A DNA stretch of 60,406 nucleotides, taken from the NCBI GenBank assembly GCA_043820025.1, contig JBDRED010000009.1:1-60406 (forward strand), read 5' to 3'. Source of the stretch: Elusimicrobiota bacterium. GTDB taxonomy: Bacteria > RUG730 > JBDRED01. The notes beneath the pieces were generated by a model that saw nothing but the letters and a program-made list of their open reading frames with translations, made no database searches and was not told the origin of the DNA. A program made the position numbers and the translations under genes. Numbering within the stretch: position 1 is the first letter of the stretch; the number at the start of each line of letters is the position of its first letter. This document shows, piece by piece, positions 2,593 through 60,406 of the stretch.

Positions 2593-5280
2593 TTACCTCA
2601 TAATTACTATTTCTATACGATTATTTTTCTCTATAGCTTCTTTGTCTCTAACCTTTGTGATTGGCGTCTTTTCCCCAAGCCCTACAGATGTTATGATCGA
2701 AGAATCTATGCCTGCAGACGCCATATAGCCGGCTACAGTCTCTGCTCGGCCTTGCGATAATGAACCATTATATCTCTTGAGGCCTTTCTTATCTGTATAT
2801 CCTTCAATCTTTATCTTAGTTATATTTATTCCTTTCATGAAAGCTACTATATCATTAATAAGCGCATTTCCGCCGTCTTTTATCTCAGCCTTTTTAGGTT
2901 CAAAAATATCTCTTGCCGTAATAGTTAAAATCAATCCCCGGGCATCCTCTCTGATATCTACTCTCTTTTTTAATTTATTTATTGCCTCTTTATCAAATAC
3001 CTTTTGTGTGTTGCGCAGAATAAAATTTACAGGCTTGGATTCAGCCTTATTTCCAAGAACATCCGTAGCTCCAATAACGGCATTGAAATGTCCCTCAGGA
3101 ACTAATTTGTTCGTTGCCTCGTCTATGCCATCCCAGCTAAAGTAATCCGGAACTCTTCCTTTTCTGTATATGCGTGAAATTTCTTTATTTTCCTTATCTC
3201 TAATAGAAATCCACCATTCATCAATACCGGAGTAGTCATAAACATACAAATGGAAATCTATTAAATCATTTATGCCATCATTATTAGGCGTAAACAGCAC
3301 TCCTTTTGCAAGGCTGATCTCGACCTGAGGAGGCGCTTTGTCTCCAATTATCGCTCCGTGCATTCCAATCCTCTCTTCAGGTTCTTTAAAGTGAAGAATC
3401 GAATTAAATTTCCAAGCCCATGAAACAGTTACTTCGTCAAAAGATCCTATATCAACAGTATTAATTTTATTATCATCCTCTCGAACTCCAACATAAGAAA
3501 CGCCTAATTCTCCAAATCCTTTAAGATCTCTCTTAATTGACGCTTTATACAGCTGATTTACAACAATACCAAATTCCCTGTGCCATGATTCCGGGCCCCA
3601 GGTATCACTACCATACCCAAGCTCAAGTTTGTATAATCTGTGCTTTAAGATTAGCTCTAATGATAACATGTTTGTCGTTGGTTTTAAGTCATCTTCATCA
3701 TTGGCGTAACTATAACTTCCTGTAGCAACCGGTGAATTGCCTCCACGCGCTACGAGCGTAAGAGAAGTCAGCGATCCTAAACTTGAGCGTAAAACAAAAT
3801 CAATATAATGTAGTGGAGTATTGAATCCAAAAAGGCCATAAACACTTGAAGGCTCCCAAATAACCTTGCCGTCTGCGTTATAGTACCATGTTCTGTCAGT
3901 TGACGTAGGATAATAGTTCATAGAATATCCTAAAGCGCAGGCAAATGGAGATTCAATCGCATCATTTATATTCCATGCTTCCAGGTTTGCAGGTTCGTAC
4001 TTATAAAAATTTGATTTTGCCGAAGGATCATATGTAATAAAAAGGCCGGTAAGCGTTGCTTCTCTATTATCCATATCAACCCTAAAAGGCGCATCCTCTC
4101 CCCTTGGAACAATATAAGCCGGCCCGGGCTGTAATTCAGTTCCTTCATATAAATATGGATTCGCAGATATTAAAGGCTTTCTCCATGTTGCTTTTAACGA
4201 CATTGATAAATGTCTCGCAACCTTTTTGTCAGCAAAACCTTCTATTTCATTTTTATTACCTGCGACAATACCCAAATGTGAATACGAAAGCCGCAATTTA
4301 TCAACAAAAGAAATTAATTTCTCGTTTGGCTCAACAATAATCTTATATCCAATTCCATCCTTTTCCTCAGTTGTGCCATTTTTAACCTTAAACTTAGAGC
4401 CAAGATCACCTTCTCCATCTTTTACATTGTCAACATAAGTATAAGCCTCATTAAGCCTAAACGGCTGATACATTACACCTAATTCAAGGTTTATCGAATT
4501 AATATAACTGATTTTTGAATTTAACGCGTAAGATTCTCTAAACTCATCATCCCATCCCCAAGGAATTTTTTCCCGTCTTGCGACAAAATAATTATCCAAT
4601 TTATAAAATCTGTAATTATATTTAGCGTATAACGAATCTCTCATTCCCCATATCGGCTCGCCGCCAATCACTACAAGCGACCCGACCGGAAGTCTCATTT
4701 CCGCCTCGCCGGCCTCAGGCGCTGTTCTTCCGCTTATATTTAAATAATTTTCAGTATCAAACTGTTCCGGATAAAATCCAAAAATATCGCCTTCATATTT
4801 CCAATTATAGTGTCCTACTCCTTTAAAATAACGCAGTCTTGTGCTCGTAGAATGATATTCGACATCCGCTTTTGTAAACCTGGCATATTGCCTGTCATCA
4901 TATAAACGTTTATAATCATTTACAGGACGCCATAATGTGTCGAGATACCCGCCAAAAATATTTACGCCAATCATGCCCTTAAAATTATCTGTGTGCTTAA
5001 AAAGAAGGTCTAAAGAAAGTGTGTTGCGGCTCGATTTATTCCAATCACTCTCCAAAGCGCCCTGTGTGAAAAAAAACTTTTTATTTATCCCATCCTGGCT
5101 TGCGCTCCACCCGTCAACAGTTCTATTCATTGTATAATCAACAGTATAGTCGCCTTTAAATTGAAGACTGCCGTTTTCTAAATGCGAATAGGACACAGAC
5201 CAGACATATGTTTGTAAAAATAACATTGCAATGCAAAAATAATAAAAAAATTTAAAATTTATTTTACTTAGTAAAGGCAT
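2593..5280 (-). CDS. Large outer-membrane protein: ~640-aa putative beta-barrel, Ig-like domain, C-terminal OmpA-type peptidoglycan-binding domain
   Basis: 895 aa. C-terminus IEGYTDKKGLKRYNGSLSQGRAETVAGYM...NNRIEIVI is an OmpA_C signature. FTPNNDGINDLIDF resembles the FlgD-Ig / CHU_C-type beta-sandwich motif. The N-terminal region is rich in aromatic residues in an alternating pattern. Confidence 0.8.
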   Translation of the reverse strand: MPLLSKINFKFFYYFCIAMLFLQTYVWSVSYSHLENGSLQFKGDYTVDYTMNRTVDGWSASQDGINKKFFFTQGALESDWNKSSRNTLSLDLLFKHTDNFKGMIGVNIFGGYLDTLWRPVNDYKRLYDDRQYARFTKADVEYHSTSTRLRYFKGVGHYNWKYEGDIFGFYPEQFDTENYLNISGRTAPEAGEAEMRLPVGSLVVIGGEPIWGMRDSLYAKYNYRFYKLDNYFVARREKIPWGWDDEFRESYALNSKISYINSINLELGVMYQPFRLNEAYTYVDNVKDGEGDLGSKFKVKNGTTEEKDGIGYKIIVEPNEKLISFVDKLRLSYSHLGIVAGNKNEIEGFADKKVARHLSMSLKATWRKPLISANPYLYEGTELQPGPAYIVPRGEDAPFRVDMDNREATLTGLFITYDPSAKSNFYKYEPANLEAWNINDAIESPFACALGYSMNYYPTSTDRTWYYNADGKVIWEPSSVYGLFGFNTPLHYIDFVLRSSLGSLTSLTLVARGGNSPVATGSYSYANDEDDLKPTTNMLSLELILKHRLYKLELGYGSDTWGPESWHREFGIVVNQLYKASIKRDLKGFGELGVSYVGVREDDNKINTVDIGSFDEVTVSWAWKFNSILHFKEPEERIGMHGAIIGDKAPPQVEISLAKGVLFTPNNDGINDLIDFHLYVYDYSGIDEWWISIRDKENKEISRIYRKGRVPDYFSWDGIDEATNKLVPEGHFNAVIGATDVLGNKAESKPVNFILRNTQKVFDKEAINKLKKRVDIREDARGLILTITARDIFEPKKAEIKDGGNALINDIVAFMKGINITKIKIEGYTDKKGLKRYNGSLSQGRAETVAGYMASAGIDSSIITSVGLGEKTPITKVRDKEAIEKNNRIEIVIMR

Positions 5281-5359
5281 TTGCGCTCCAAATTGAATTT
5301 GATTTAAAGGTATTTTAATCTAGCATATTTAGAAAAATATGCCAAGATTATTTTTATAA

Positions 5360-7288
5360 TTATTTTTTAAGGTTCCATAAATCCTTATATGTATAGTAAG
5401 CTTCTCTTAAATTACGCTGAAAAGGGCTATTCTCCCCATTCCCCTGGCCAACAATACCAAACCACTCTTCATGACCCCATCCATCAGGAAACGGCATTGC
5501 GTATTGCGCCTGTCTTTGCTGTTCAAAAGGAGAATCTCCCTGTGAATCTTTCCACCATTCGTCAAGCCACTCAAAAATTATTCCGCCAAGACAAATCCCC
5601 TCTCCCGGCTGGCCCATTGTGTTATATTCAATATCCTTCCAATTACCCTTGTGGTAATTTGCTTGTTCGATTTCATTTACGCCCTGACGCTCATGATACG
5701 CATCACAACCATACTCAGTAATAATAACAGGTTTTTCAATCTTCTTCTTTATTTTTTTCCATAATGGGCCAAAGCTGTCTCCGCCAAGATAAGCGTTTAC
5801 GCCAAATATATCAATTTCCGGGCTGTATTTATGATAATAATCCAAAAGATCCAGACTGTAATTTCCGACAACTACAGGATGATTTGGGTCAAGTTTATGA
5901 ATCATGGCCGCAACCTCATTTACAAATTCAGTGTATTCCTTAGGAAATTTACTCGCATTTGTAGCTGTGGCATTCACTCCGCCTACATCCGGAAGGTCAT
6001 TCTCGTTGCCAATCGCCCACATAAGAACATAAGGTTCATCCTTGTGATCCATAACCATTCTTTTAACGCTGTCCTTCATCATCTTGCGCTGTAAAGGATC
6101 TCGGTAATCTGTTGAAGACGAATCTGATCCAATACCATACGCGCCTATAAAATCTCCTAATATAACTCGTATACCATACGTCTTATATAAATCTCTTAAT
6201 ATGTCTTTATCAATTCCTCCCTGCTCATAACCCTTCTTTGAAAACATATGGTACATTCTTATGGTATTTACGCCCATATCCTTTAATAATTGAAAATCGC
6301 CGACTATCGGCTCGTTGCTGTCCCGTTTATTATTACTATTACTATCAACCCATGAGTCATAAGCAGCGTCAGATTTTCCATTCTTATTAGTATCCAGTTT
6401 CATCCACTTTGTTTCCCTGCCCGGTTCATCCACCTTTGTACCAATCTTGGTCGGAGCGTAAGTGATGCCTTTTACAATATATGGTTTACCTTTTACCAAT
6501 AACTGCCATTGCCCATTATCATACTGAACTACCTGAACAGCGCCTTCTCCTCTCTGTTTAATAATATTCAGCGCCCCGGCTTTTACCTTTTGCGGCACAC
6601 GCGATTCATTACTCACAAATCTGCCGGGATTAACAACAACAACATCATTTTGAAGATCTGTGTCATCCTTATTTTCTATTTCAACTGAAGCGTCTACGAG
6701 CGTAAAACCCAGATCATCAGCGTATTCCCTGCATAACACATTAATTCTGTCAATCGCTACAGGCGCAACATACCAGACAAAACTTCCGTCAATACCCCAG
6801 CATGCCGTCTGAGGAAAATTAATAACAATAGAATAGTACGCCTTTATAGCCTGCACTATACTTCCGCCGTTTTTTAACGCCTCCGCAGTAAAGAACTGCC
6901 TTGTGCCGGGATCATGGTCTAAATAATTATCATTTACAACATTTGCCGTTGCCCAAGCGAAAAAATCAACCTCAGGATTTCCGGTATTAACATTCTTCCA
7001 AATATCATCTTCAAATGCTTGTTGTTTTAAAAGTTTTTTATAGACAGGGTCTAAAGACGCTTCGCGGTTTGGGTACACGCCCTCGCCTGCAGCGCGGGAT
7101 AAACCCTCTTTATCCGTGATTTTGTACTTGTAATAAGCTGTCCCTATATTCTTAAATTTCCCGTACTTTTCGTAATCAATAATTTTATCGCCTGTATTTT
7201 TTATACGTATTTCCGACCCTAAAACAACCATCTGTAAAAAGCAGATGATTAGCATACTCAGAATTAAACTAACTGTTATTTTTTTCAT
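5360..7288 (-). CDS. Secreted clan GH-A (TIM-barrel) glycoside hydrolase-like protein, paralogue A
   Basis: 642 aa with signal peptide. WAIGNEN (acid/base NE) and VIITEYGCDAY (nucleophile E, GH2 GusA-like ITEYG) lie at the expected spacing. GVNTIRMYH is the first barrel strand. The ~230-aa N-terminal domain is unassigned. Confidence 0.8.
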   Translation of the reverse strand: MKKITVSLILSMLIICFLQMVVLGSEIRIKNTGDKIIDYEKYGKFKNIGTAYYKYKITDKEGLSRAAGEGVYPNREASLDPVYKKLLKQQAFEDDIWKNVNTGNPEVDFFAWATANVVNDNYLDHDPGTRQFFTAEALKNGGSIVQAIKAYYSIVINFPQTACWGIDGSFVWYVAPVAIDRINVLCREYADDLGFTLVDASVEIENKDDTDLQNDVVVVNPGRFVSNESRVPQKVKAGALNIIKQRGEGAVQVVQYDNGQWQLLVKGKPYIVKGITYAPTKIGTKVDEPGRETKWMKLDTNKNGKSDAAYDSWVDSNSNNKRDSNEPIVGDFQLLKDMGVNTIRMYHMFSKKGYEQGGIDKDILRDLYKTYGIRVILGDFIGAYGIGSDSSSTDYRDPLQRKMMKDSVKRMVMDHKDEPYVLMWAIGNENDLPDVGGVNATATNASKFPKEYTEFVNEVAAMIHKLDPNHPVVVGNYSLDLLDYYHKYSPEIDIFGVNAYLGGDSFGPLWKKIKKKIEKPVIITEYGCDAYHERQGVNEIEQANYHKGNWKDIEYNTMGQPGEGICLGGIIFEWLDEWWKDSQGDSPFEQQRQAQYAMPFPDGWGHEEWFGIVGQGNGENSPFQRNLREAYYTYKDLWNLKK

Positions 7289-7346
7289 CTTTCTTTCTCC
7301 TTTTAATATCCATCGATATGTTATAGAAAAAATCTATACCGGATTC

Positions 7347-9254
7347 CTATTGAACATTAGTCTCTTGATCATTCCATACGCTCTTGTAATAATAATAGCT
7401 TTCTCTAATCTGTCTCAAAAACGGACTATTCTTTCCTTTTCCCTGGCTGCAAATACCCAGCCATTCTTCATACATCCACCCATCGGGAAAAGGCCCTGCC
7501 CACTGTCCGGTGCGATCATGATAGTAAGGATAAAAAGCCTTCCACCATCCATCCACCCACTCAAAAACCACTCCTCCCAACGCAATACCTTTCCCTTTGC
7601 CGGCCATATTATTTATAATATCTTCCCAGGCAAATTGGTGATACAGCCTCTGGTAGTGTTCCGCTTCCTTTTGGCTCTTACCCCAATAAAAAGCCGGGCA
7701 TCCATATTCTGTAACTAAAACAGGCTTATTAATTTCACCTTGCAGATCTTCCCAAAATGTTGAGCCAAATCCTTCCATGCCCCTATACGCATTACAGCCA
7801 AAAATATCAATATTGTCGCTATTCTTCGCAAAAACATCTAGAAACAGGACATCCCCGTTACAAATAGCTATAGGATGGTTCGGATCTATTTCCTTTATTT
7901 TTTTCGCAACCTTATTAACAAATTTGTAAAACTGTTCAGGCTGTTCCCCGGCCATACACCCGGATCCCGTAGACTGCTTCTTTATTCCCACTGTGCCATA
8001 ATTATTCTCATTACCAAGAATCCACATAAGAACATACGGCTCATCCTTATGTTCACGAACCATCTTTAAAACGCTTGCCATCATGTTCTTACAATGTTTC
8101 GGATTAGTATAATCTGTGCCTTGAAACCAATCTGCTCCTGACCCTGTTGCATACATTCCCAGAAAATCACCGAGCATTACCATTATTCCGTATTTATTAT
8201 ATAATTCGCGCAGAAGTTTTTTATTCGACGCATGATGATAAACACGCAATGTGTTTACGCCCATATCATGCATAAGCTTAAAATCTCCTACAACTTGCTC
8301 GTTATTGTCTTGAACATCATTCTGATTTAAATCTACCCAGGTATCAAAAGGACAATCAACACGCCCATTTTTATTTATATCGCTCTGCATCCAATCTTTA
8401 AATGTTCCTTTATCCGGGCTCTGTCCAATAACACTCGGGAGATAACCCATCCCTCTTATTTGCCAAAGCCTATCGTTTATAAAAAGCTGCCAATGCTTAT
8501 TATCGTACTGAACCAGTTTTATATCCCCAAATATATTTTCTTTAACCTTATGAAGAGCGTTGATATTAATTTTGGCAGGTGTTACTTGTTTATCAACATT
8601 AACCAGTTTGCCGGGATTAACTATAAAAATATCATTACTGATATCATTATCAAACCTGTTCTTAATTTTTATGAAAGCGCCTTCAATAGCTATCTTTTCT
8701 TCAGGATGATACGCGCACAAAAACTTTATTTTATCAAGAGCAACCTGCCCAACATACCATGGATTATGCCAATATGTTCTTCCTATTGTTCTTGGAAACA
8801 TTACAACAACCGTATAATAAGCTTTTATTGCCTGTTTAATGTGCCCCGCTTTTTCTAAGGCTGATGCCACATAAAACTGCCTCAATCCCGGATGCTCCTC
8901 GTATGAACTGGCCCATTTAAAGAATGCAAGCTCCTTATTATCCACATTAACAAAATCCCACCTATTACCATCTAAAAGGCCTGCTTCCTTGTCCTTAGTA
9001 AAACGCGGGTTCTTATCAAGGCTCCATGTGTTAGGCGCTATTCCTTCTCCCTGCGCTCTGCCTAAACCTTCGTAATCTGAAATTATATATCTATAATTTT
9101 CCGTATCAACTCCGTCAAAACTACCGTACTTGCCGTAATCTACTATATCCTCTGTACCCCAATCACTAATAAAGGTATCAGCCGAATAGGAAAGCGACCC
9201 GGCTAATATTAATGCTGAGGCTAATAAATAAATCCGTTTTGATTTTGCAATCAT
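7347..9254 (-). CDS. Secreted clan GH-A glycoside hydrolase-like protein, paralogue B
   Basis: 635 aa with signal peptide. WILGNEN and VLVTEYGCPAFY. Shares HKDEPYVLMW, DPNHP, IDIFG.NAY and PFPDGW..EEW.GI with paralogue A. The start overlaps the permease stop by 4 nt. Confidence 0.8.
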   Translation of the reverse strand: MIAKSKRIYLLASALILAGSLSYSADTFISDWGTEDIVDYGKYGSFDGVDTENYRYIISDYEGLGRAQGEGIAPNTWSLDKNPRFTKDKEAGLLDGNRWDFVNVDNKELAFFKWASSYEEHPGLRQFYVASALEKAGHIKQAIKAYYTVVVMFPRTIGRTYWHNPWYVGQVALDKIKFLCAYHPEEKIAIEGAFIKIKNRFDNDISNDIFIVNPGKLVNVDKQVTPAKININALHKVKENIFGDIKLVQYDNKHWQLFINDRLWQIRGMGYLPSVIGQSPDKGTFKDWMQSDINKNGRVDCPFDTWVDLNQNDVQDNNEQVVGDFKLMHDMGVNTLRVYHHASNKKLLRELYNKYGIMVMLGDFLGMYATGSGADWFQGTDYTNPKHCKNMMASVLKMVREHKDEPYVLMWILGNENNYGTVGIKKQSTGSGCMAGEQPEQFYKFVNKVAKKIKEIDPNHPIAICNGDVLFLDVFAKNSDNIDIFGCNAYRGMEGFGSTFWEDLQGEINKPVLVTEYGCPAFYWGKSQKEAEHYQRLYHQFAWEDIINNMAGKGKGIALGGVVFEWVDGWWKAFYPYYHDRTGQWAGPFPDGWMYEEWLGICSQGKGKNSPFLRQIRESYYYYKSVWNDQETNVQ

Positions 9255-31524: not shown

Positions 31525-31643
31525 ATATTCCCTCCGTTTCATAAGTTAATGAGTTATTATAATTGTTACAATACTTCCGAATTCTATTTTATATTATTTT
31601 ATTTGAATCGGCTAGTTTGATGATTGATTATAAAAGAATTATT

Positions 31644-31717
31644 TAGCGGCGCAGGGATTTGAACCCCGGACCTGCGGATTATGATTCCGTCGCTCTAACC
31701 AGCTGAGCTACGCCGCC
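31644..31717 (-). tRNA. tRNA with CAU anticodon (elongator Met, or Ile2 that requires lysidine)
   Basis: Reverse complement GGCGGCGTAGCTCAGCTGGTTAGAGCGACGGAATCATAATCCGCAGGTCCGGGGTTCAAATCCCTGCGCCGCTA folds as a cloverleaf. The anticodon stem lacks the three G-C pairs of initiator tRNA. No encoded CCA. Confidence 0.85.
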
Positions 31718-31782
31718 AATAATTGAAATGATTTATATGTATACCAATTTAATGCTTGTTTTTCAAGTGAAAAGTGAACTGA

Positions 31783-31838
31783 GGGACAGACCCCAAAATT
31801 CGGAAAATTTTAAAATACCTGATTTTGGGGGCTGTTCC
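31783..31838 (-). terminator. Long imperfect hairpin downstream of the TlpA-like gene (probable terminator)
   Basis: Arms 31783-31799 and 31822-31838 pair at 16 of 17 positions (one G-U included) with a 22-nt loop. Begins 6 nt after the stop at 31844. The downstream tail is only moderately T-rich. Confidence 0.5.
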
Positions 31839-31843
31839 TCCGG

Positions 31844-32392
31844 TTATAGAAGCTCAAGTATTTGTTTTTCAAAAACCTCTTTTGGCGCATATCCAATATG
31901 TTTACCTCTAATATTTCCTTCCCTGTCAATAATAAATGTTGTTGGTATGCCCCTAATTCCGCCATACGCAATTGTAACAGGCTCATCACCTAAAACAAGC
32001 GTGTAATTTATTCCCATCTCCTCTGCAAATGGAGCAATAACTCCGGGCCCTTCCATATCAAGCGTAACTCCGACTATTTCAAGTCCCTGTTCTTTGTATT
32101 TATTTTGTAGTTCAACAAATCCGGGTATTTCCATTCTGCATGGCGGGCACCATGTTGCCCAAAAATCCAGTATTATTACCTTTCCTTTTAAAGACGATAA
32201 AGTAAAATCTCCTTCTTCAAGAGCCAATGGCAATGTGAAATCGGAAGCGTCGCCCCAATCAGACGCTGTCAGAGTATTTTTTTCACTGACAGTTTTTAAA
32301 GGCTTTTCGTTTTTTGCAGCCTCACTGCCGCAGCTGACTAAAAACACGCTAAATATAGTTACGAGTATTGCTGTTTTTGTTATTTGTATCAT
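31844..32392 (-). CDS. TlpA/ResA-like periplasmic thiol:disulfide oxidoreductase lipoprotein
   Basis: Lipobox LVSCGS. WATWCPPC active site. Thioredoxin fold length. Confidence 0.88.
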   Translation of the reverse strand: MIQITKTAILVTIFSVFLVSCGSEAAKNEKPLKTVSEKNTLTASDWGDASDFTLPLALEEGDFTLSSLKGKVIILDFWATWCPPCRMEIPGFVELQNKYKEQGLEIVGVTLDMEGPGVIAPFAEEMGINYTLVLGDEPVTIAYGGIRGIPTTFIIDREGNIRGKHIGYAPKEVFEKQILELL

Positions 32393-32522
32393 ATAATCCC
32401 TCCTCTATTGTTTAATAATTTATTATAGCAATATAATATTTAGTGTCAAGGAATATATTGTAATATTCATATATTATTATATAGTTTGTTCTGAAAAAGC
32501 GGGCCTATTGCAAATTTAATAA

Positions 32523-32555
32523 TAAAAAAAACGCCGGCTTAAAGACGGCGTTTTT
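32523..32555 (-). terminator. Rho-independent terminator of the tRNA operon (sequence is bidirectional)
   Basis: ACGCCG / CGGCGT stem (32530-32535 / 32545-32550) is flanked by an A-run on one side and a T-run on the other. On the minus strand the hairpin is followed by T8. Confidence 0.8.
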
Positions 32556-32590
32556 TAACGCAATACGCTGTTCGCGCAACGCATTACGAA

Positions 32591-32667
32591 ATGGCGGGGA
32601 CGACGAGACTTGAACTCGCGGTCTCGGCCTTGACAGGGCCGCATGTTAACCAACTACACCACGCCCC
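32591..32667 (-). tRNA. tRNA-Asp (GUC), CCA encoded
   Basis: Reverse complement GGGGGCGTGGTGTAGTTGGTTAACATGCGGCCCTGTCAAGGCCGAGACCGCGAGTTCAAGTCTCGTCGTCCCCGCCA. Anticodon loop CTGTCAA. Confidence 0.93.
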
Positions 32668-32759
32668 CACACCAAAAAGATTAAAGAGTTTATATAATAC
32701 GTTATACGCATGCTTACCCATCTAAAGGCGCCGGCCGCATCGCGTACTACGATTATATT

Positions 32760-32833
32760 TGGGCAATGAGGGAGTTGAACCCCCGACCTTTCGGATGTAA
32801 GCCGAACGCTCTAACCAACTGAGCTAATTGCCC
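32760..32833 (-). tRNA. tRNA-Val (UAC)
   Basis: Reverse complement GGGCAATTAGCTCAGTTGGTTAGAGCGTTCGGCTTACATCCGAAAGGTCGGGGGTTCAACTCCCTCATTGCCCA. Anticodon loop CTTACAT. Confidence 0.93.
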
Positions 32834-32955
32834 AAAAAATTCAAAATCGCTAATCAAAATCAGAGAACCATTTACTACAATAACGCATTACTATTTATTA
32901 TCATTATATCCTATTTTTTAAGTTTAATTACACACTAAAAGTTTTTAATTAAACT

Positions 32956-33027
32956 TACCCCCAAGGGGATTCGAACCCCTGCTACCGCCGTGAAAGGGCG
33001 ATGACCTAACCGCTAGTCTATGGGGGC
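32956..33027 (-). tRNA. tRNA-Glu (UUC)
   Basis: Reverse complement GCCCCCATAGACTAGCGGTTAGGTCATCGCCCTTTCACGGCGGTAGCAGGGGTTCGAATCCCCTTGGGGGTA. Anticodon loop CTTTCAC. Confidence 0.92.
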
Positions 33028-33047
33028 AAAATAGGCGTTTCTATTAT

Positions 33048-33119
33048 TGAGCCGGGTGCGACTTGAACGCACGACCACCTCCTTAAAAGGGAGATGCTCT
33101 ACCACTGAGCTACCGGCCC
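33048..33119 (-). tRNA. tRNA-Lys (UUU)
   Basis: Reverse complement GGGCCGGTAGCTCAGTGGTAGAGCATCTCCCTTTTAAGGAGGTGGTCGTGCGTTCAAGTCGCACCCGGCTCA. Anticodon loop CTTTTAA. Confidence 0.92.
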
Positions 33120-33201
33120 AAAAAATATTTATCAACACATCCCTATTAATACCATTTTTAAATTTACTTCTCTTGAAGCATTAAAAAAGGGAAGAAATTA
33201 A

Positions 33202-52060: not shown

Positions 52061-53157
52061 TTAACCTAACTGCATTATTTCATCAACCTTATCCATAACA
52101 GCGTCTACTGAAATATCGTTTATATTATCCGTTGCGGATTGTATGTATAAATTATTCCTGCCAATAGGATTCCACCTTGCGGCAAATGTAGGGCCGAACA
52201 GGCCTATTGTACTGCTCCTGACAGCCGCGGCAATATGCAGAATACCTGTGTCATTTGATATGCATAAATCGGCTTTTTTTAAAAAACTTGCCAGATGCCT
52301 TAGTCCAAACTGAGGCAGATACATAAATCTGTCCTTTGCTAAATTTTTGCATTCTTCCATAATGGCTGATTCCCCCGGCCCGCAGGATATCAAAATTTTC
52401 AAATTTTCCTTATCCAATATTTTTTTTCCAAGCGCCGCAAAATTTTTACAGCCCATCTGTTTTGCGCCTTGCCTGCGCCCAAATGCATTATTATAACTTT
52501 GTCTTTGCTGTTTATATTATTATTTTTATAATAATCTTCATAAAAACATTCCTCATCTTTTGTGAGAATCATACGTTCGGATAGATCATTGCATACAGCT
52601 TTAAAAAAAGCCGCGTATTCGCATTTAATTAATATATCATGCTGTTTGAAATTTATTGGAATCATCAAGTTAAACAGCCTTGTGATTTTAGGCTCAAACC
52701 GAACTGCAAGATCCCTTGCTCCAATCACATACCGCGCATTAGAAAAATACGCAAAAAGTCCGCTCGTCAAAGAAAACGATATTGAATCAATCACGATTGC
52801 GGCATCGTATCTCCTGCTCCTGATTTTTTTAATAAATTTCAACAATCCAAATACCTTTAACTTCTTTTTATCATACACATATATTTCATCGATATCAGGA
52901 TTATTTATAAGAACAGCGCAATGAAGAGGCCTTACAACAACACCCAGCTCTCCTCCCGCGCCTATTAATTCTTTTAACGCTTTTATCATTGGCGTGGCTA
53001 ACAGCATATCTCCTGTTTCATTGTGAGGATAAACAATGAGAATTCTTCTTATTGTTGAATTTCTAATCTCTTCAGCTGATATTTGTTTTCCGGATGGAAT
53101 TAAACTTATAATTAACCTGGTTAGATATGGCCTTATCCGGGCTTCTATTTTCTTCAT
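52061..53157 (-). pseudogene. GT9 (heptosyltransferase-like) glycosyltransferase split by a 1-nt frameshift
   Basis: Track ORFs 52399-53157 (ILIVYPHNETGDMLLATPMIKALKE..HLGAGKAQNRW) and 52061-52456 (..NFAALGKKILD...SNDTGILHIAAAV..IGLFGPT) are the N- and C-halves of one GT9 protein. The frames join at the A5T4 run (minus strand) at 52439-52447. Confidence 0.8.
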
Positions 53158-56231: not shown

Positions 56232-56260
56232 ATTATACTATTTCCTGAAAGGTAAGTCAA
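56232..56260 (-). promoter_or_regulatory. Sigma70-type promoter candidate for hisG
   Basis: The minus strand reads TTGACT (56260-56255), a 17-nt spacer, then TATAAT (56237-56232), about 80 nt upstream of the hisG ATG. Confidence 0.55.
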
Positions 56261-56270
56261 ACATAGAGGT

Positions 56271-56309
56271 AATAACCGAAATGCGGACCTGTCCCTTATT
56301 TCGGTTATT
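56271..56309 (-). terminator. Perfect 12-bp inverted repeat hairpin at the end of the fibre-like gene array
   Basis: AATAACCGAAAT (56271-56282) and ATTTCGGTTATT (56298-56309) with a 15-nt loop. The right arm overlaps the stop codon 56305-56307. No clear T-run follows on the minus strand. Confidence 0.45.
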
Positions 56310-57651
56310 CTATTGATTCGATTATGCCGTCCCAGATATTTATAGTCCTGTCAACTCCGTCAAGATCCCTAAACTGCATGCTATAGGTAATCCCCTGATA
56401 ATTTCCGTAATAATAATTTTGCGCGTACACATCGCCTGAAACTTCCAGCTTTTCTCTCGCATTTATTGATGAGCCTATGCCTACATTGCCGTCATTTTTA
56501 ACAATAATCCCATAATTACCGCCGTCGTCGCGAATACCCAGGCCGTCAGGCCCTTCAGCCTCTATGCGCATAGTAGTTATATATCCATTTACAGTCAGCC
56601 TCTCGGAAATATGTTCCGGCCCTGCGACACGCAGTTTATCAGCCCCTACTGTAGTTGTCCCTATCCCGATCTTTTGAGAGCTTTGATATATGACCGAGTC
56701 GGTTACCTGACTGCCGCCGCTTCCAAACTTTGCAATATAATTTGACGTGCCTGACCCTCCGACTCCTGACCCGCCGGATGCCCAAGTATAATTGCCGCTG
56801 TTATCATTCTTTAAGTATCCTTCGGCATGCGCGCTCGGCCATGACGACGCAATATTACGTATTTTTTTGATATTTCCGGTTTTATCTATTTGAAAAACAT
56901 TGTTTCCCGCTGTAAATAGTTCGTCTCCGCCATCAGTGCCTACGCCTACCTTACCGTCAGCTTTTACGCTTAAAACCGTATTTGCTCCTTTCTTAATCTT
57001 AAGAATATAATCAGCCGGAGCAGGCGATCCCTTAGAAATATGCACCAATCCTGCAGGATTAGTTGTTCCTATTCCCACATAACCTGTGTCATGTATTAAA
57101 AGCCCGTTTGTTCCCGCATAATTTAAAAGCCTTAAACCGCTGTTATCTCGAGCCTGAATTCTATCTGTGTTTATAAATTTATTATAAATAAATTCAACAT
57201 TGTCTCCAAAATATGAACTACCCTTAACTGTCAATTTATAATTTAAAGCCTGTGTTGTTCCTATTCCTATATTACCCTGAGCATTTACATAAACCACATT
57301 GGGAATACTGCCGTTAGCTGACTCCAGCGAATTACTTACAGCAAGAGTCGTAGTGCTCACAGCAATGCTTCCGTCAGGAAATTTAACACCGCTAAAACTT
57401 CCTGCCAGACTAATCGTGCTCACAATCAGCTTATAATTTCCCGGCGAAGCGCCTATTCCGACATTACCTTTAAAATATACCCGGCCGTTCGACGCAACCG
57501 TAGACACAACAACACCCGCGCTATTCTGTATCCAGAATCCGCTGGATGCATCGCTCGTAGACAGTTTTATCCTGGCGTCGCTTCCTGCATAGAGATTCCC
57601 CGCGGTTAAAGAAGCCAAAATAAATAATAATATAATTAAATTCTTTTTCAT
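56305..57651 (-). CDS. Secreted fibre-like repeat protein, paralogue 1 (GN[VI]GIG repeats)
   Basis: 448 aa. Signal peptide MKKNLIILLFILASLTAGNLYA. Repeated GNVGIGAS / GNIGIGTT / YVGIGTTNP / KIGIGTTT / GNVGIGSS. Also carries the FQIDKTGNIKKIRNIASSWP...NDNSGNYTW module. Confidence 0.85.
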   Translation of the reverse strand: MKKNLIILLFILASLTAGNLYAGSDARIKLSTSDASSGFWIQNSAGVVVSTVASNGRVYFKGNVGIGASPGNYKLIVSTISLAGSFSGVKFPDGSIAVSTTTLAVSNSLESANGSIPNVVYVNAQGNIGIGTTQALNYKLTVKGSSYFGDNVEFIYNKFINTDRIQARDNSGLRLLNYAGTNGLLIHDTGYVGIGTTNPAGLVHISKGSPAPADYILKIKKGANTVLSVKADGKVGVGTDGGDELFTAGNNVFQIDKTGNIKKIRNIASSWPSAHAEGYLKNDNSGNYTWASGGSGVGGSGTSNYIAKFGSGGSQVTDSVIYQSSQKIGIGTTTVGADKLRVAGPEHISERLTVNGYITTMRIEAEGPDGLGIRDDGGNYGIIVKNDGNVGIGSSINAREKLEVSGDVYAQNYYYGNYQGITYSMQFRDLDGVDRTINIWDGIIESIE

Positions 57652-57663
57652 AAACCTATCCAG

Positions 57664-59046
57664 TTAATCCGGCGTTTTAACGCAATACGTAACTATACCG
57701 CCGTATAAATTAATATCTAACGTGCCTGTATCATAAGAATCGTTTATATATACTTTTATACTATCCGTTAGTGTTCCTCCCTGTTTTACTCCTGCAAAAA
57801 AACTTCCGCTTGTTCGTAGTTTCCCTGTAACATCTAACTTTTGCTGTGGACTGCTTGTCGCAATACCTACATTACCCGCATTACCGACAAACAAACCTAA
57901 TGCTCCTGCGTCGTTTGTGATATACATCCCATTTGTATCAGGAGCGCGAACACTGTTAAGCGTAATGCTCGAGACAACCAGCTCTTGTTCGACATAATGC
58001 CTTGTGCTTACATTTAATTTGTAATTACCGGGAACCGTTGTTCCTATTCCGATATTACCGCCTGACTCAAAGATCTCTGATGAGCCGATATTCTCGGAGC
58101 TTGTAAAATATGCGGCATAGCCTGCAGTACCGCTTCCTCCCAATCCACCCTGCGCTGTTACCCATGAGAGATTCCCTGATCCGTCATTTTTAAGAAATGT
58201 ATCCGCGCTTCTTGACGATGGCCACGAATATGTTAAGTTATTTATTTTAATTAGGTTGCCGCTCCTGTTAACCTGGAATGTATTATCCCCCACTGTGAAA
58301 AGCGCGGTTGGATTAGTAGTGCCTACGCCAACATTTTCAGAGACTGCCATCAATGTGTTTACGCTTGTTGTGCCTGTAGTTATTCTTAAAAGATACTGCG
58401 TATTCGTAATACTCTGCGAAGAAACATGCAGCATTGCTGTAGGGCTATTTAGACCGACTCCTATATTGCCGTATTGATCTATAAACATCCGATTCACGCT
58501 GTCGTCTGAATAAAGGCTTATCCCGGCCGCGCTTTTTGCTTTAATTTTATCAATTAATAAATATTTACTATCAGCCACAACAGCGCTGCTTCTAAAGAGC
58601 GTTGTTCCGTTAATATTAAACTTACTGCCTGCAGGTATAGTCATGCCGTATCCTATGCCGACTGCGGCTGTGTCGTCTACATACATAACATTTGCTATTC
58701 CATTGCCAAGCGAATTTAGCCTGTAACTCGTAGAATAAGGCGCAGTTGAATTAAAAATCGTATTATCGGTTAATATAATACCGCCGCCTGTCACAAAAAT
58801 ATCGCCGTTTACCGTGAGAGTTGATACTGCTATATGCGTGCCTATCCCAACATTCCCCGGGAAATACGCATTGCCGGTTGAAGTTATTGTTGTAATTTTT
58901 ACTCCATTTGAATTTTCTATCCACAATCCGTTTTCAGCGCTGTCGCTTGCAAGCCGCACAGTTACCTCTGACGCAGAATAAAGAAAGCTGCAGCTTGCCG
59001 GTATTAAAAATATTAAGCTGATATATTTCAAATATTTTGTAATCAT
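57664..59046 (-). CDS. Secreted fibre-like repeat protein, paralogue 2
   Basis: Start taken at ATG 59046, which forms an ATGA overlap with the upstream stop, giving MITKYLKYISLIFLIPASCSFLYSA. Module order matches paralogue 1. Shares ESGGNIGIGTTVPGNYKLNV exactly with paralogue 3. Confidence 0.85.
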   Translation of the reverse strand: MITKYLKYISLIFLIPASCSFLYSASEVTVRLASDSAENGLWIENSNGVKITTITSTGNAYFPGNVGIGTHIAVSTLTVNGDIFVTGGGIILTDNTIFNSTAPYSTSYRLNSLGNGIANVMYVDDTAAVGIGYGMTIPAGSKFNINGTTLFRSSAVVADSKYLLIDKIKAKSAAGISLYSDDSVNRMFIDQYGNIGVGLNSPTAMLHVSSQSITNTQYLLRITTGTTSVNTLMAVSENVGVGTTNPTALFTVGDNTFQVNRSGNLIKINNLTYSWPSSRSADTFLKNDGSGNLSWVTAQGGLGGSGTAGYAAYFTSSENIGSSEIFESGGNIGIGTTVPGNYKLNVSTRHYVEQELVVSSITLNSVRAPDTNGMYITNDAGALGLFVGNAGNVGIATSSPQQKLDVTGKLRTSGSFFAGVKQGGTLTDSIKVYINDSYDTGTLDINLYGGIVTYCVKTPD

Positions 59047-60406
59047 CCGCTCCACCCCGAAGGAACATGCTGGCTTGTGCTTCCGTTATACACATGCACA
59101 ACAATCCCGCCTTTCATAGTAACCGTATATGAATCGCCCCAATAATCATAGAATGATATTTCCTTAGTTTCGCCTGCATTCCCTGCGCAATCATACCCCT
59201 CGCTTACTCTGATACCCTCGCTGTTGCCCGCATCTTCCGAATAAACGGAAAGCTTCCTGGGCGCTGTTGTTGACCCTATACCTACATTGCCCTGGTCATA
59301 TACAGTTAATCTGCGCGTGCCTGTGCTGCTTGTAACAATAAATCCCAAAGCTGTCTTAGCGTCTAACATTCTTACTACTGTATATGAGGAATATGATATA
59401 TCGCTGTTAACATACATAGGACCGTTTACATTAAGCTTATAATTCCCGGGAACGGTTGTGCCTATTCCAATGTTGCCGCCTGATTCATAAATCACGCTGT
59501 TACCCACGCTCGCAGCGCCTGTAAACTTTGTTATATAATTTTCTGTGCCGCCGCCTGTTATATTAATAGCCAGGCTCTCCCACGACAAATCGCCGTCAGT
59601 ATTTACCTTAAGGAGCGTATCAGCGCCGCCTTGTATAGCCGGCCATGTGTAAGTAACGCCATTTATTGATTTCATATTCCCTGCAGTATCTATCTGAAAC
59701 CCGTTATTCCCGCCTACACAAAAAAGCTGTGACGGCGCATCCGTGCCAATACCTACCCTTTCGTCTCCTCTTACAGTCAGAATAGGAGTAGTGCCTGTTG
59801 TTATCTTTAAATAATACTGCGAGCTTGTGGCTGTATCGCTGGATATATGCAAAACCGCGGTTGTGCCGCCGGACCCGATCCCGATATTCCCTGAATTTGT
59901 AACGCGCAGGCCTTCTGCGCCTGCGCTGTTTGAAATAAATAATGTATCGCTTTCCTCGCTGCCGCGCGGCCGCGCCTCATCAGCAGAAAAATATAAACCA
60001 TTATCTAATGTCAAATCATTATTAAAAAATGTTTTGCCGTTAACATAAAGTTTTGACGTGATTGATTCTGTAATACCTATTCCGACATTTCCGGAGTTAT
60101 CAACATACACAACATTATGAGTAAGAGCGTCGTCTGAGCTGAGCGAATTTTTCGAACCAAGATCGTCTGTTGAGGAAAGATAAGTATTGTCAGGGAAATA
60201 TAAGCTTCCGGAAGAAAGCGCCATATTTCCGTTAATCGTCAGGTTTGTATTTGTGCTCTTTGCGCCGATCCCGACCTTGCCTTTAAAGTACGCGTCGCCT
60301 CTTGAGCTGAAGGATGAGATAATAACTCCGCTACTATTTTCAATAGCCAGCTGCGAACTGCCGTCAGATGTGTCTAAATCTATAATTACATCGCCTGCAG
60401 CCAGAG
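59043..60406 (-). CDS. Fibre-like repeat protein, paralogue 3, N-terminus beyond the right edge
   Basis: The reading frame stays open from the track's Met (60224) to base 60406. My translation is LAAGDVIIDLDTSDGSSQLAIENSSGVIISSFSSRGDAYFKGKVGIGAKSTNTNLTINGN-MALSS..., which aligns with the post-signal N-termini of paralogues 1 and 2. Confidence 0.85.
   Translation of the reverse strand, partial: LAAGDVIIDLDTSDGSSQLAIENSSGVIISSFSSRGDAYFKGKVGIGAKSTNTNLTINGNMALSSGSLYFPDNTYLSSTDDLGSKNSLSSDDALTHNVVYVDNSGNVGIGITESITSKLYVNGKTFFNNDLTLDNGLYFSADEARPRGSEESDTLFISNSAGAEGLRVTNSGNIGIGSGGTTAVLHISSDTATSSQYYLKITTGTTPILTVRGDERVGIGTDAPSQLFCVGGNNGFQIDTAGNMKSINGVTYTWPAIQGGADTLLKVNTDGDLSWESLAINITGGGTENYITKFTGAASVGNSVIYESGGNIGIGTTVPGNYKLNVNGPMYVNSDISYSSYTVVRMLDAKTALGFIVTSSTGTRRLTVYDQGNVGIGSTTAPRKLSVYSEDAGNSEGIRVSEGYDCAGNAGETKEISFYDYWGDSYTVTMKGGIVVHVYNGSTSQHVPSGWSG

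Follow-up and report, generated by a model that had tools for sequence, protein, structure and literature searches.

The stretch examined here, hereafter the window, is the whole of contig JBDRED010000009.1 (60,406 bases) from an Elusimicrobiota bacterium (GenBank assembly GCA_043820025.1). At its far end, positions 56305-60406, it carries a tandem array of three genes for fiber-like proteins, which we designate geneA, geneB, and geneC. All three open reading frames (ORFs) were confirmed and lie on the minus strand, with geneA transcribed first, followed by geneB and then geneC, and the contig ends inside geneA. The array and its borders are laid out as follows.

59043..60406, minus strand: geneA, the first gene; 453 amino acids present, with the 5' end cut by the contig end
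59043..59046, minus strand: ATGA, the overlap of the geneA stop and the geneB start, a signature of translational coupling, read from the sequence
57664..59046, minus strand: geneB, the second paralogue; 460 amino acids, complete
58972..59046, minus strand: geneB signal peptide MITKYLKYISLIFLIPASCSFLYSA, of the Sec/signal peptidase I type, by inspection
57652..57663, minus strand: 12-nt spacer CTGGATAGGTTT from the geneB stop to the geneC start, read from the sequence
56305..57651, minus strand: geneC, the third and last paralogue; 448 amino acids, complete
57583..57651, minus strand: geneC signal peptide MKKNLIILLFILASLTAGNLYAG, by inspection
56263..56313, minus strand: stable hairpin over the geneC stop codon, then UUAUUA; RNA fold ΔG of -17.8 kcal/mol, z of -3.9 against shuffles
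56232..56260, minus strand: sigma-70-like promoter match ahead of hisG, TTGACT-17-TATAAT, 11/12; a match to the consensus alone

These coordinates bear out the initial annotation of this DNA, made from the letters only, in its claim of three consecutive paralogues joined by an ATGA overlap and a 12-nt gap. The ATG of geneB, at 59046, is preceded by GGAG 6-9 nt upstream. The same annotation described the third gene as truncated by the window edge; a truncated gene is indeed present, but because the genes are on the minus strand, it opens the operon and lacks its 5' end. An orthologue of geneA, P0139 (MFH1714846.1, Elusimicrobiota, partial), is 87% identical over 221 amino acids and aligns from its residue 20, so just 19 codons of geneA are missing, corresponding to the signal peptide (MKTRLCIYTIILIMTASFT...). 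Both assemblies break in the same gene, the window contig at geneA codon 20 and the metagenome-assembled genome contig of P0139 at codon 240 of the orthologue, which points to strain variation or to breaks that repeats in the array induced during assembly. At the other end, the hairpin at 56263..56313 is probably the operon terminator; a simple terminator scan did not call it. The promoter match before hisG marks the downstream limit of the transcription unit of the array.

Pairwise BLASTP alignments of the three proteins run over their full length at 35-38% identity (E = 1e-67 to 1e-75) and are strictly collinear, and the proteins have similar compositions (Gly 12-14%, Ser 10-13%, Thr 7-11%, and Asn 7.5-8%). 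Alignment also upholds the module order first proposed for them, which is common to all three: a signal peptide, an N-module, six GNVGIGT..P...L motifs, a central FQV..YSWP..DGSGNLSW module that lies amid the motifs, and a C-terminal tip. Where five to six copies of the GNVGIGT-type motif had been counted previously, a motif scan finds exactly six [VIL]G[IV][GA] capping-type motifs per protein, at collinear offsets of 0, ~63, ~129, ~172, ~266, and ~328 from the first. In a six-frame translation of the window, the motif is absent from every other ORF. The modules occupy the following positions.

60264..60395, minus strand: geneA N-module, directly after the signal-peptide cleavage site
58840..58971, minus strand: geneB N-module, directly after the signal peptide
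57451..57582, minus strand: geneC N-module, directly after the signal peptide
60234-60281, 60045-60092, 59844-59891, 59715-59762, 59430-59477, and 59244-59291, minus strand: geneA capping-type motifs, by motif scan
58810-58857, 58621-58668, 58423-58470, 58291-58338, 58012-58059, and 57829-57876, minus strand: geneB capping-type motifs, by motif scan
57421-57468, 57229-57276, 57037-57084, 56908-56955, 56629-56676, and 56443-56490, minus strand: geneC capping-type motifs, by motif scan
59580..59699, minus strand: geneA central module, FQ(I/V)..(S/T)GN..KI....Y(S/T)WP......L..(D/N).(S/D)G(N/D)L(S/T)W, by motif and profile
58162..58278, minus strand: geneB central module, by motif and profile
56782..56895, minus strand: geneC central module, residues 253-290, by alignment and profile
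59046..59231, minus strand: geneA C-terminal tip after the last capping loop, ~62 amino acids, the longest of the three
57667..57822, minus strand: geneB C-terminal tip after the last capping loop, ~52 amino acids
56308..56436, minus strand: geneC C-terminal tip after the last capping loop, ~43 amino acids, with the common (G/D)GI(I/V) motif near the C terminus

Identity among the paralogues is 52% in the N-module, 44% in the central module, 29-33% in the shaft, and 29% in the tip. The N-module, ~45 residues past the cleavage site with the pattern D.E.KL.S.DGS.GF.IQ…G……S.GNAYFKGNVGIG, is the part best conserved among the three. The geneA and geneB proteins have one identical stretch of 20 residues, ESGGNIGIGTTVPGNYKLNV, and, as had been reported, the DNA beneath it differs at synonymous sites (11 of 60 nt, in 10 codons, every change synonymous). 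The longest exact nucleotide word common to any gene pair is 12-14 nt, and the DNA repeats in the array are just ~23-nt motif-coding stretches. With synonymous differences throughout the shared block and no exact word above 14 nt, the duplicates are old and show no sign of recent gene conversion; the lengths of these words and repeats led us to reject recent conversion or cassette exchange among the paralogues. The earlier likening of the array to a chimeric, cassette-like set does not hold, because the three proteins are collinear over their full length and their tips are homologous to one another, not swapped.

All signal peptides were judged by inspection of sequence. In geneB, geneC, P0139, and the related proteins P0129, L003, and L006, a positively charged n-region is followed by a hydrophobic core of 14-16 residues and a small-residue site before the N-module. 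Of the signal peptides originally assigned to all three paralogues, those of geneB and geneC are plain, and that of geneA is supplied by its orthologue P0139. Lipoprotein anchoring of the geneB product was considered and rejected: its 'PASC' does not make up a canonical lipobox, and no cysteine occupies the matching position before cleavage in geneC, P0139, or L003.

Scans of the three proteins with Pfam, NCBIfam, and PADLOC gave no usable family match, and tail-fiber families in PHROG (9942 and 18345) matched weakly, the best being geneA against PHROG 9942 'tail fiber protein' (E = 2.8e-12). When profiles were compared with all PDB sequences, the sole matches were four structures of the mosaic adhesive trimer (MAT) fibers of Bdellovibrio bacteriovorus described by Caulton et al. 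2024 (PMC10769870); these PDB entries hold C-terminal parts only, and the comparison covers those parts. The whole-protein profile (A1) matched Bd2133 (8OND) in three stretches (E = 8.2e-13), Bd2439 (8OL4; E = 7.5e-4), and Bd3182 (8OJN; E = 0.011), and the central-module profile (A5) matched Bd2133 (2.9e-12), Bd3182 (5e-5), Bd1334 (8OML; 5e-4), and Bd2439 (9e-4). The last capping loop also matches the Bdellovibrio MAT fibers by profile against the PDB, and the stretch past the first loop (…SGVKFPDGS…) aligns to the Bd2133 segment GGIKFPDGS. HMMER places 'GNIGIGLTSPTALLHIS' on 'RVGVGTTAPTSALHVI' of Bd3182, the published proximal capping loop. The motifs align likewise to capping loops of Bd2133, Bd2439, and Bd1334. 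The Bd3182 stretch, residues R656-H669, forms a capping loop on the edge of an intertwined trimeric β-helix, and the loops listed in Supplementary Fig. 18 of the same study include NVGIGATAPTAKLE and NVGIGTTTTTEKLN (PMC10769870). Because GNVGIGT aligns to published capping loops, we identify the GNVGIGT repeat as the MAT/S74 capping loop, which follows the pattern V-G-x-G/N-small-x-x-P-x-x-x-L.

The predicted structures point the same way. AlphaFold2 models the geneC monomer as all-β, without helices, extended, and nonglobular (predicted local distance difference test, pLDDT, 65; predicted TM-score, pTM, 0.35), and its residues 200-352, the central module, likewise as all-β (pLDDT 81). Foldseek with the geneC model ranked 8OND first in the PDB (E = 1.3e-4, probability 0.96) and returned 74 matches at E≤1e-3 in BFVD, mostly phage tail-fiber-like or S74 proteins. 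With MAT fibers as the only sequence relatives in the PDB and Foldseek ranking these and phage S74 proteins first, the link originally drawn to tail-fiber-domain proteins and to the fibers of Bdellovibrio stands. Peptidase_S74 (PF13884) gave no match in the three proteins at E≤1, in a scan that detects S74 in the homologues P0012 and L006a. Pfam also found no Por_Secre_tail sorting domain of the type IX secretion system (T9SS) in the three proteins; a partial homologue from a different organism, P0004, adjoins a protein with a T9SS sorting domain.

An exhaustive profile search returned 64,785 representative clusters (50% identity) at E≤1e-3, 16,283 of them at E≤1e-10. Among the top matches, giant proteins of 1,300-7,700 amino acids, each matched in 10-50 stretches, predominate, and in giants of 2,000-7,700 amino acids, the capping-loop and central modules are found 10-53 times; named matches come from Bacteroidota, the candidate phyla radiation (CPR), DPANN, cyanobacteria, and Elusimicrobia, many of them with Peptidase_S74. 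We therefore place the modules in a shuffled repeat superfamily of very large extent, little of which is covered by the Pfam copy that we used. Beyond the window, conservation is strongest in the central module (GNVGIGT..P..L..VG….FQV..SGN..KI….YSWP……L..DGSGNLSW), for which domain E-values reach 3e-35; this module also occurs in the S74 proteins P0012 and L006a.

The full short architecture, by comparison, was seen solely in the window proteins, P0139, and P0129, the last a 475-residue protein 37-41% identical to the geneA, geneB, and geneC products. P0129 is encoded on a Logan contig (L004; 1,675 bases) in which the C-terminal end of another paralogue lies directly upstream and overlaps the P0129 start, so the tandem arrangement recurs in another sample. 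Positions 1-30 and 1646-1675 of this contig are Nextera transposase adapter (CTGTCTCTTATACACATCT and its complement), and the upstream ORF begins 'SEMCIRDR'; the adapter at both ends marks those ends as library artifacts, not genome.

The N-module is similarly restricted. Counting full-length matches only, its profile found the window proteins, P0129, P0139, L003 (an Elusimicrobia bin), the Elusimicrobiota fragments P0391 and P0396, and two tandem genes on the metagenome contig L006, all of them Elusimicrobiota-type sequences. The first L006 protein, L006a (a 687-residue open frame), ends in a Peptidase_S74 chaperone domain (E = 2.7e-17) with SDVRWK, a form of the SDxxxK motif of S74. As judged from these sequences, a single module after the signal peptide heads both S74-ending and non-S74 fibers in this lineage, which mirrors the organization of the S74 and non-S74 MATs of Bdellovibrio. 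Mosaicism was seen at the lineage level alone, in that the N-module has an S74 end in L006a; the window tips are homologous. Other searches added little: a profile search of genome contigs found one distant locus; a metagenome search found 14 loci, mostly large fiber proteins of unrelated architecture, of which L006 alone was informative; and a protein search with the 75-residue N-module profile returned proteins of 68-132 amino acids and little beyond the two Elusimicrobiota fragments. Upstream of the L003 fiber gene (3615-8179, Elusimicrobia ADurb.Bin231) lie FliG-like, MotA-like, and two MotB/OmpA-like ORFs, a tetratricopeptide-repeat protein, and a nucleotidyltransferase/HEPN-type pair; no link between these ORFs, which were judged by eye without a family search, and the fiber gene is evident.

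The other 56 kb of the window, downstream of the array, contain housekeeping genes on the same strand (hisG, gltX, DUF1844, a radical-SAM enzyme, clpB, tig, clpP, clpX, lon, ftsH, tilS, pfk, serA, glmS, pdxJ, folE, and an ABC sugar transporter) and no phage gene. GC content and GC content at third codon positions (GC3) of geneA-C are like those of the neighboring genes. An OmpA-family protein and a glycosyltransferase family 9 (GT9) heptosyltransferase in the window point to a diderm envelope. The GT9 gene (52061-53157, minus strand) is split over two overlapping ORFs in different frames, one at 52399..53157 (252 amino acids) with no Pfam match and one at 52061..52456 (131 amino acids) that matches Glyco_transf_9 positions 125-236 of 247; a frameshift, a pseudogene, or an assembly error might explain the split. 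The minus strand carries every credible gene of the 60-kb contig, all seven tRNA genes included, and each 2-kb bin has a negative GC skew (-0.15 to -0.34), an extreme strand bias for such a length. Five of the tRNA genes (Met, Asp, Val, Glu, and Lys) fall within 1.5 kb (31643-33120, minus strand) between the pfk and serA regions.

The host is an Elusimicrobiota bacterium: its GltX has relatives at 70% identity, the named relatives, at 56-60%, are Elusimicrobiota, and so, by its label, is the source of the geneA orthologue. Although an epibiotic or predatory lifestyle had been raised as a possible setting for such fibers, nothing in the window or in the relatives analyzed indicates one. In one relative with a 70% identical GltX (GCA_042566505.1; L005), the order hisG-gltX-DUF1844 is kept, and crcB, an iron-containing alcohol dehydrogenase gene, and alaS, with no fiber genes, lie upstream of hisG. 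Absence of the array despite this synteny marks it as accessory and not core.

Taking these data together, we think it reasonably probable that the array is one Elusimicrobiota operon of three anciently duplicated genes for short (~425 amino acids when mature), Sec-exported, all-β fibers of the tail-fiber-like/MAT superfamily, of the non-S74 type. The spacing of -4 and +12 nt and the hairpin after geneC suggest that geneA-C are cotranscribed, and each product would then be exported by way of its Sec signal peptide, as recognized by inspection. The crystal structures of Bd2133, Bd3182, Bd2439, and Bd1334 suggest, by homology, that the mature chains form an intertwined trimeric β-helix/prism shaft with six GNVGIGT..P...L capping loops. 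By analogy, the N-module may be cell proximal and anchor the fiber, since it is the best-conserved part and is common to proteins of other C-terminal architecture. The pattern of divergence is consistent with the distal shaft and small tip binding different ligands, in which case the three paralogues would constitute a small adhesin repertoire. Scaled from the Bdellovibrio fibers at ~0.4-0.6 Å per residue, each fiber would be ~17-25 nm long. We infer the trimeric state, the surface display, and the adhesin function from these relationships.

Several observations weigh against this interpretation. Foldseek gives TM-scores of 0.1-0.25, low values that are to be expected for single chains taken out of intertwined trimers; Foldseek with the central module against the PDB places Bd3182 and Bd2133 first but without significance (E > 0.01); and the monomer models are of moderate confidence (pLDDT 65 and 81). 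The tips past the last capping loop have no relative in the PDB or Pfam and no recognized adhesive fold, and they are small (43-62 amino acids) and homologous to each other, so that an argument from diversified tips carries less weight here than for Bdellovibrio. The window shows neither a route across the outer membrane nor an anchor partner, and the signal peptides were recognized by eye.

A different possibility is that geneA-C supply the three chains of one obligate heterotrimeric β-helical fiber (1:1:1), with translational coupling and gene order serving stoichiometry. The tandem C1q A/B/C genes and the heterotrimeric collagens are analogues of such a system, and a fiber of this kind would be, to our knowledge, the first heterotrimeric member of the tail-fiber/MAT class. 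We regard it as unlikely. Six capping motifs at matching offsets (within ~4 residues) in three collinear paralogues of near-equal length are what in-register assembly needs, but a shared fold would account for the conserved spacing equally well, and P0129, an unlinked homologue, has the same spacing. The gene junctions, an ATGA overlap and a 12-nt spacer, are of a kind typical for fixed-ratio subunits, and overlapping tandem genes also occur in L004; tandem paralogous adhesins are nevertheless common, with bd0704/0705 and bd3266/3267 adjacent in Bdellovibrio (PMC10769870). Order and register have been kept in duplicates that are old (35-38% identity), and the genes would number exactly three if geneA, in which the contig ends, is the first. 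All characterized relatives, namely, the Bdellovibrio MATs and phage S74 fibers, are homotrimers (PMC10769870).

The same fold-family evidence that leads us to exported fibers with an adhesin function would also fit trimeric β-helix fibers with a structural, nonadhesive role, as a coat, sheath, or matrix component or as a decoy for phage receptor-binding proteins. The very small tips, without a match to any binding fold such as lectin or TNF, agree with such a role, and the huge superfamily (64,785 clusters) includes giant repetitive proteins that are perhaps structural. The only bacterial members studied experimentally are adhesins, however (PMC10769870), and the absence of the array from L005, which has the same hisG-gltX synteny, fits an accessory niche function better than a core envelope component. 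A structural role is, in our judgment, doubtful, to about the same degree as a heterotrimer.

Tail-fiber resemblance raises the further question of whether the genes are phage-derived cargo encoding the tail fibers of a prophage, a tailocin, or an extracellular contractile injection system, with the remaining genes of that system located past the contig end. The weak PHROG matches and the BFVD matches to phage fibers would be expected of such genes, and the contig, ending in geneA, does not cover the upstream side. Virion or tailocin fibers, however, do not need the Sec signal peptides seen here (that of geneA via its orthologue), and the 56 kb downstream are uninterrupted housekeeping sequence, reached after the array's own hairpin and then the hisG promoter, with GC and GC3 of the array resembling those of its neighbors. 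A search of IMG/VR contigs for relatives with the N-module patterns found none, and 50,697 GenBank phage records yielded four weak matches alone. We rejected a prophage origin on the signal peptides, the housekeeping context, and these two phage searches, and consider phage-derived cargo in general very improbable. Secreted β-helix enzymes, such as tailspike-like polysaccharide depolymerases or lyases, have the slimmest prospect, since the proteins are short, carry no catalytic domain signature, and match no Pfam, NCBIfam, or PADLOC family, whether pectate lyase, glycoside hydrolase, or β-helix enzyme, and since the distant Foldseek matches to hyaluronidases, from phages and one from Streptomyces (E = 0.09-4), fall short of significance and are due to the triple-stranded β-helix shaft.

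If geneA-C encode exported fibers of the tail-fiber-like/MAT superfamily, they extend a system that has been studied only in Bdellovibrio, as a set of prey-recognition tools, to a compact version of ~450 amino acids in Elusimicrobiota. Together with the S74-ending relatives that have the same N-module, they suggest that a conserved base with a variable distal end is a general bacterial surface toolkit and not a speciality of predators. Their small size would make them a tractable model for the export and anchoring of fibers in diderm bacteria, and they bear on the biology of Elusimicrobiota, a group whose surface structures for attaching to hosts or partners have been little characterized. The finding is of incremental value unless the three chains do form a heterotrimer.

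Among known systems, the MAT fibers of Bdellovibrio are the closest. A MAT has a signal peptide, then a conserved β-rich domain of ~130 amino acids present in every member, capped β-helix/prism segments, and a variable tip (S74 or an independently folding adhesive domain) that is exchanged between paralogues, assembles as a homotrimer intertwined over the full fiber length, and is displayed on the cell, where it binds foreign surface epitopes; Bdellovibrio has 13 S74 and eight non-S74 MATs (PMC10769870). Like the non-S74 members (Bd2133, 8OND; Bd2439, 8OL4; Bd1334, 8OML), the window proteins have a signal peptide with a conserved module directly after it, lack S74, and place a separate tip after the last capping loop. 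The repeated β-helix segments with the NVGIGT..P...L capping loop and the 'SGG(I/V)KFPDGS' stretch are shared with MATs at the level of significant homology, and in both hosts, there are several paralogues per genome, some of them adjacent. The N-module may be the positional counterpart of the MAT N-domain, to which we liken it by its place after the signal peptide. Unlike MATs, the window proteins are at most half the size (~450-472 versus 626-1,151 amino acids in strain HD100), have tips of 43-62 amino acids that are homologous among paralogues and show no known adhesive fold, are collinear instead of tip swapped, and are encoded by three genes in a translationally coupled operon; their host, an Elusimicrobiota bacterium, is, unlike Bdellovibrio, not a known predator.

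MAT-like proteins of 417-1,915 amino acids have been listed in several phyla, 'predatory and otherwise', with no Elusimicrobiota member and no coupled triple among them (PMC10769870), and our literature search found no MAT work outside predators. Two short entries in Supplementary Table S3 of that study, from Bradymonadaceae (A0A3D8MTN3, 434 amino acids, with a 'beta helix' tip) and Dokdonia (A0A239D1M7, 481 amino acids), fall in a similar length class and, according to the authors, in the same superfamily (PMC10769870). We liken these short proteins to the window proteins by description, not by sequence; none is from Elusimicrobiota, and no tandem coupled triple is reported for them (PMC10769870).

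Phage S74 fibers and tailspikes (the T5 L-shaped fiber pb1, the K1F endosialidase, and cyanophage 'tail fiber-like' proteins) have the same type of shaft and the same capping loop (PMC10769870). In keeping with this likeness, the window proteins match PHROG 9942/18345 and BFVD entries, and their central module is also found in S74 proteins; they differ from the phage fibers in lacking S74, in having signal peptides and a chromosomal, nonphage context, and in having no close phage relatives. With the 'tail fiber domain-containing' giants of Bacteroidota, CPR, DPANN, and others, a large share of which span 2,000-7,700 amino acids and contain 10-50 repeats, the window proteins have the capping-loop repeat and the central module in common. 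Unlike these giants, they are among the shortest members, have a lineage-restricted N-module, and carry no T9SS sorting domain. Compared with all of these systems, the features particular to the array are the minimal size of its proteins, their lineage-specific N-module, their small homologous tips, and the coupled operon of three genes.

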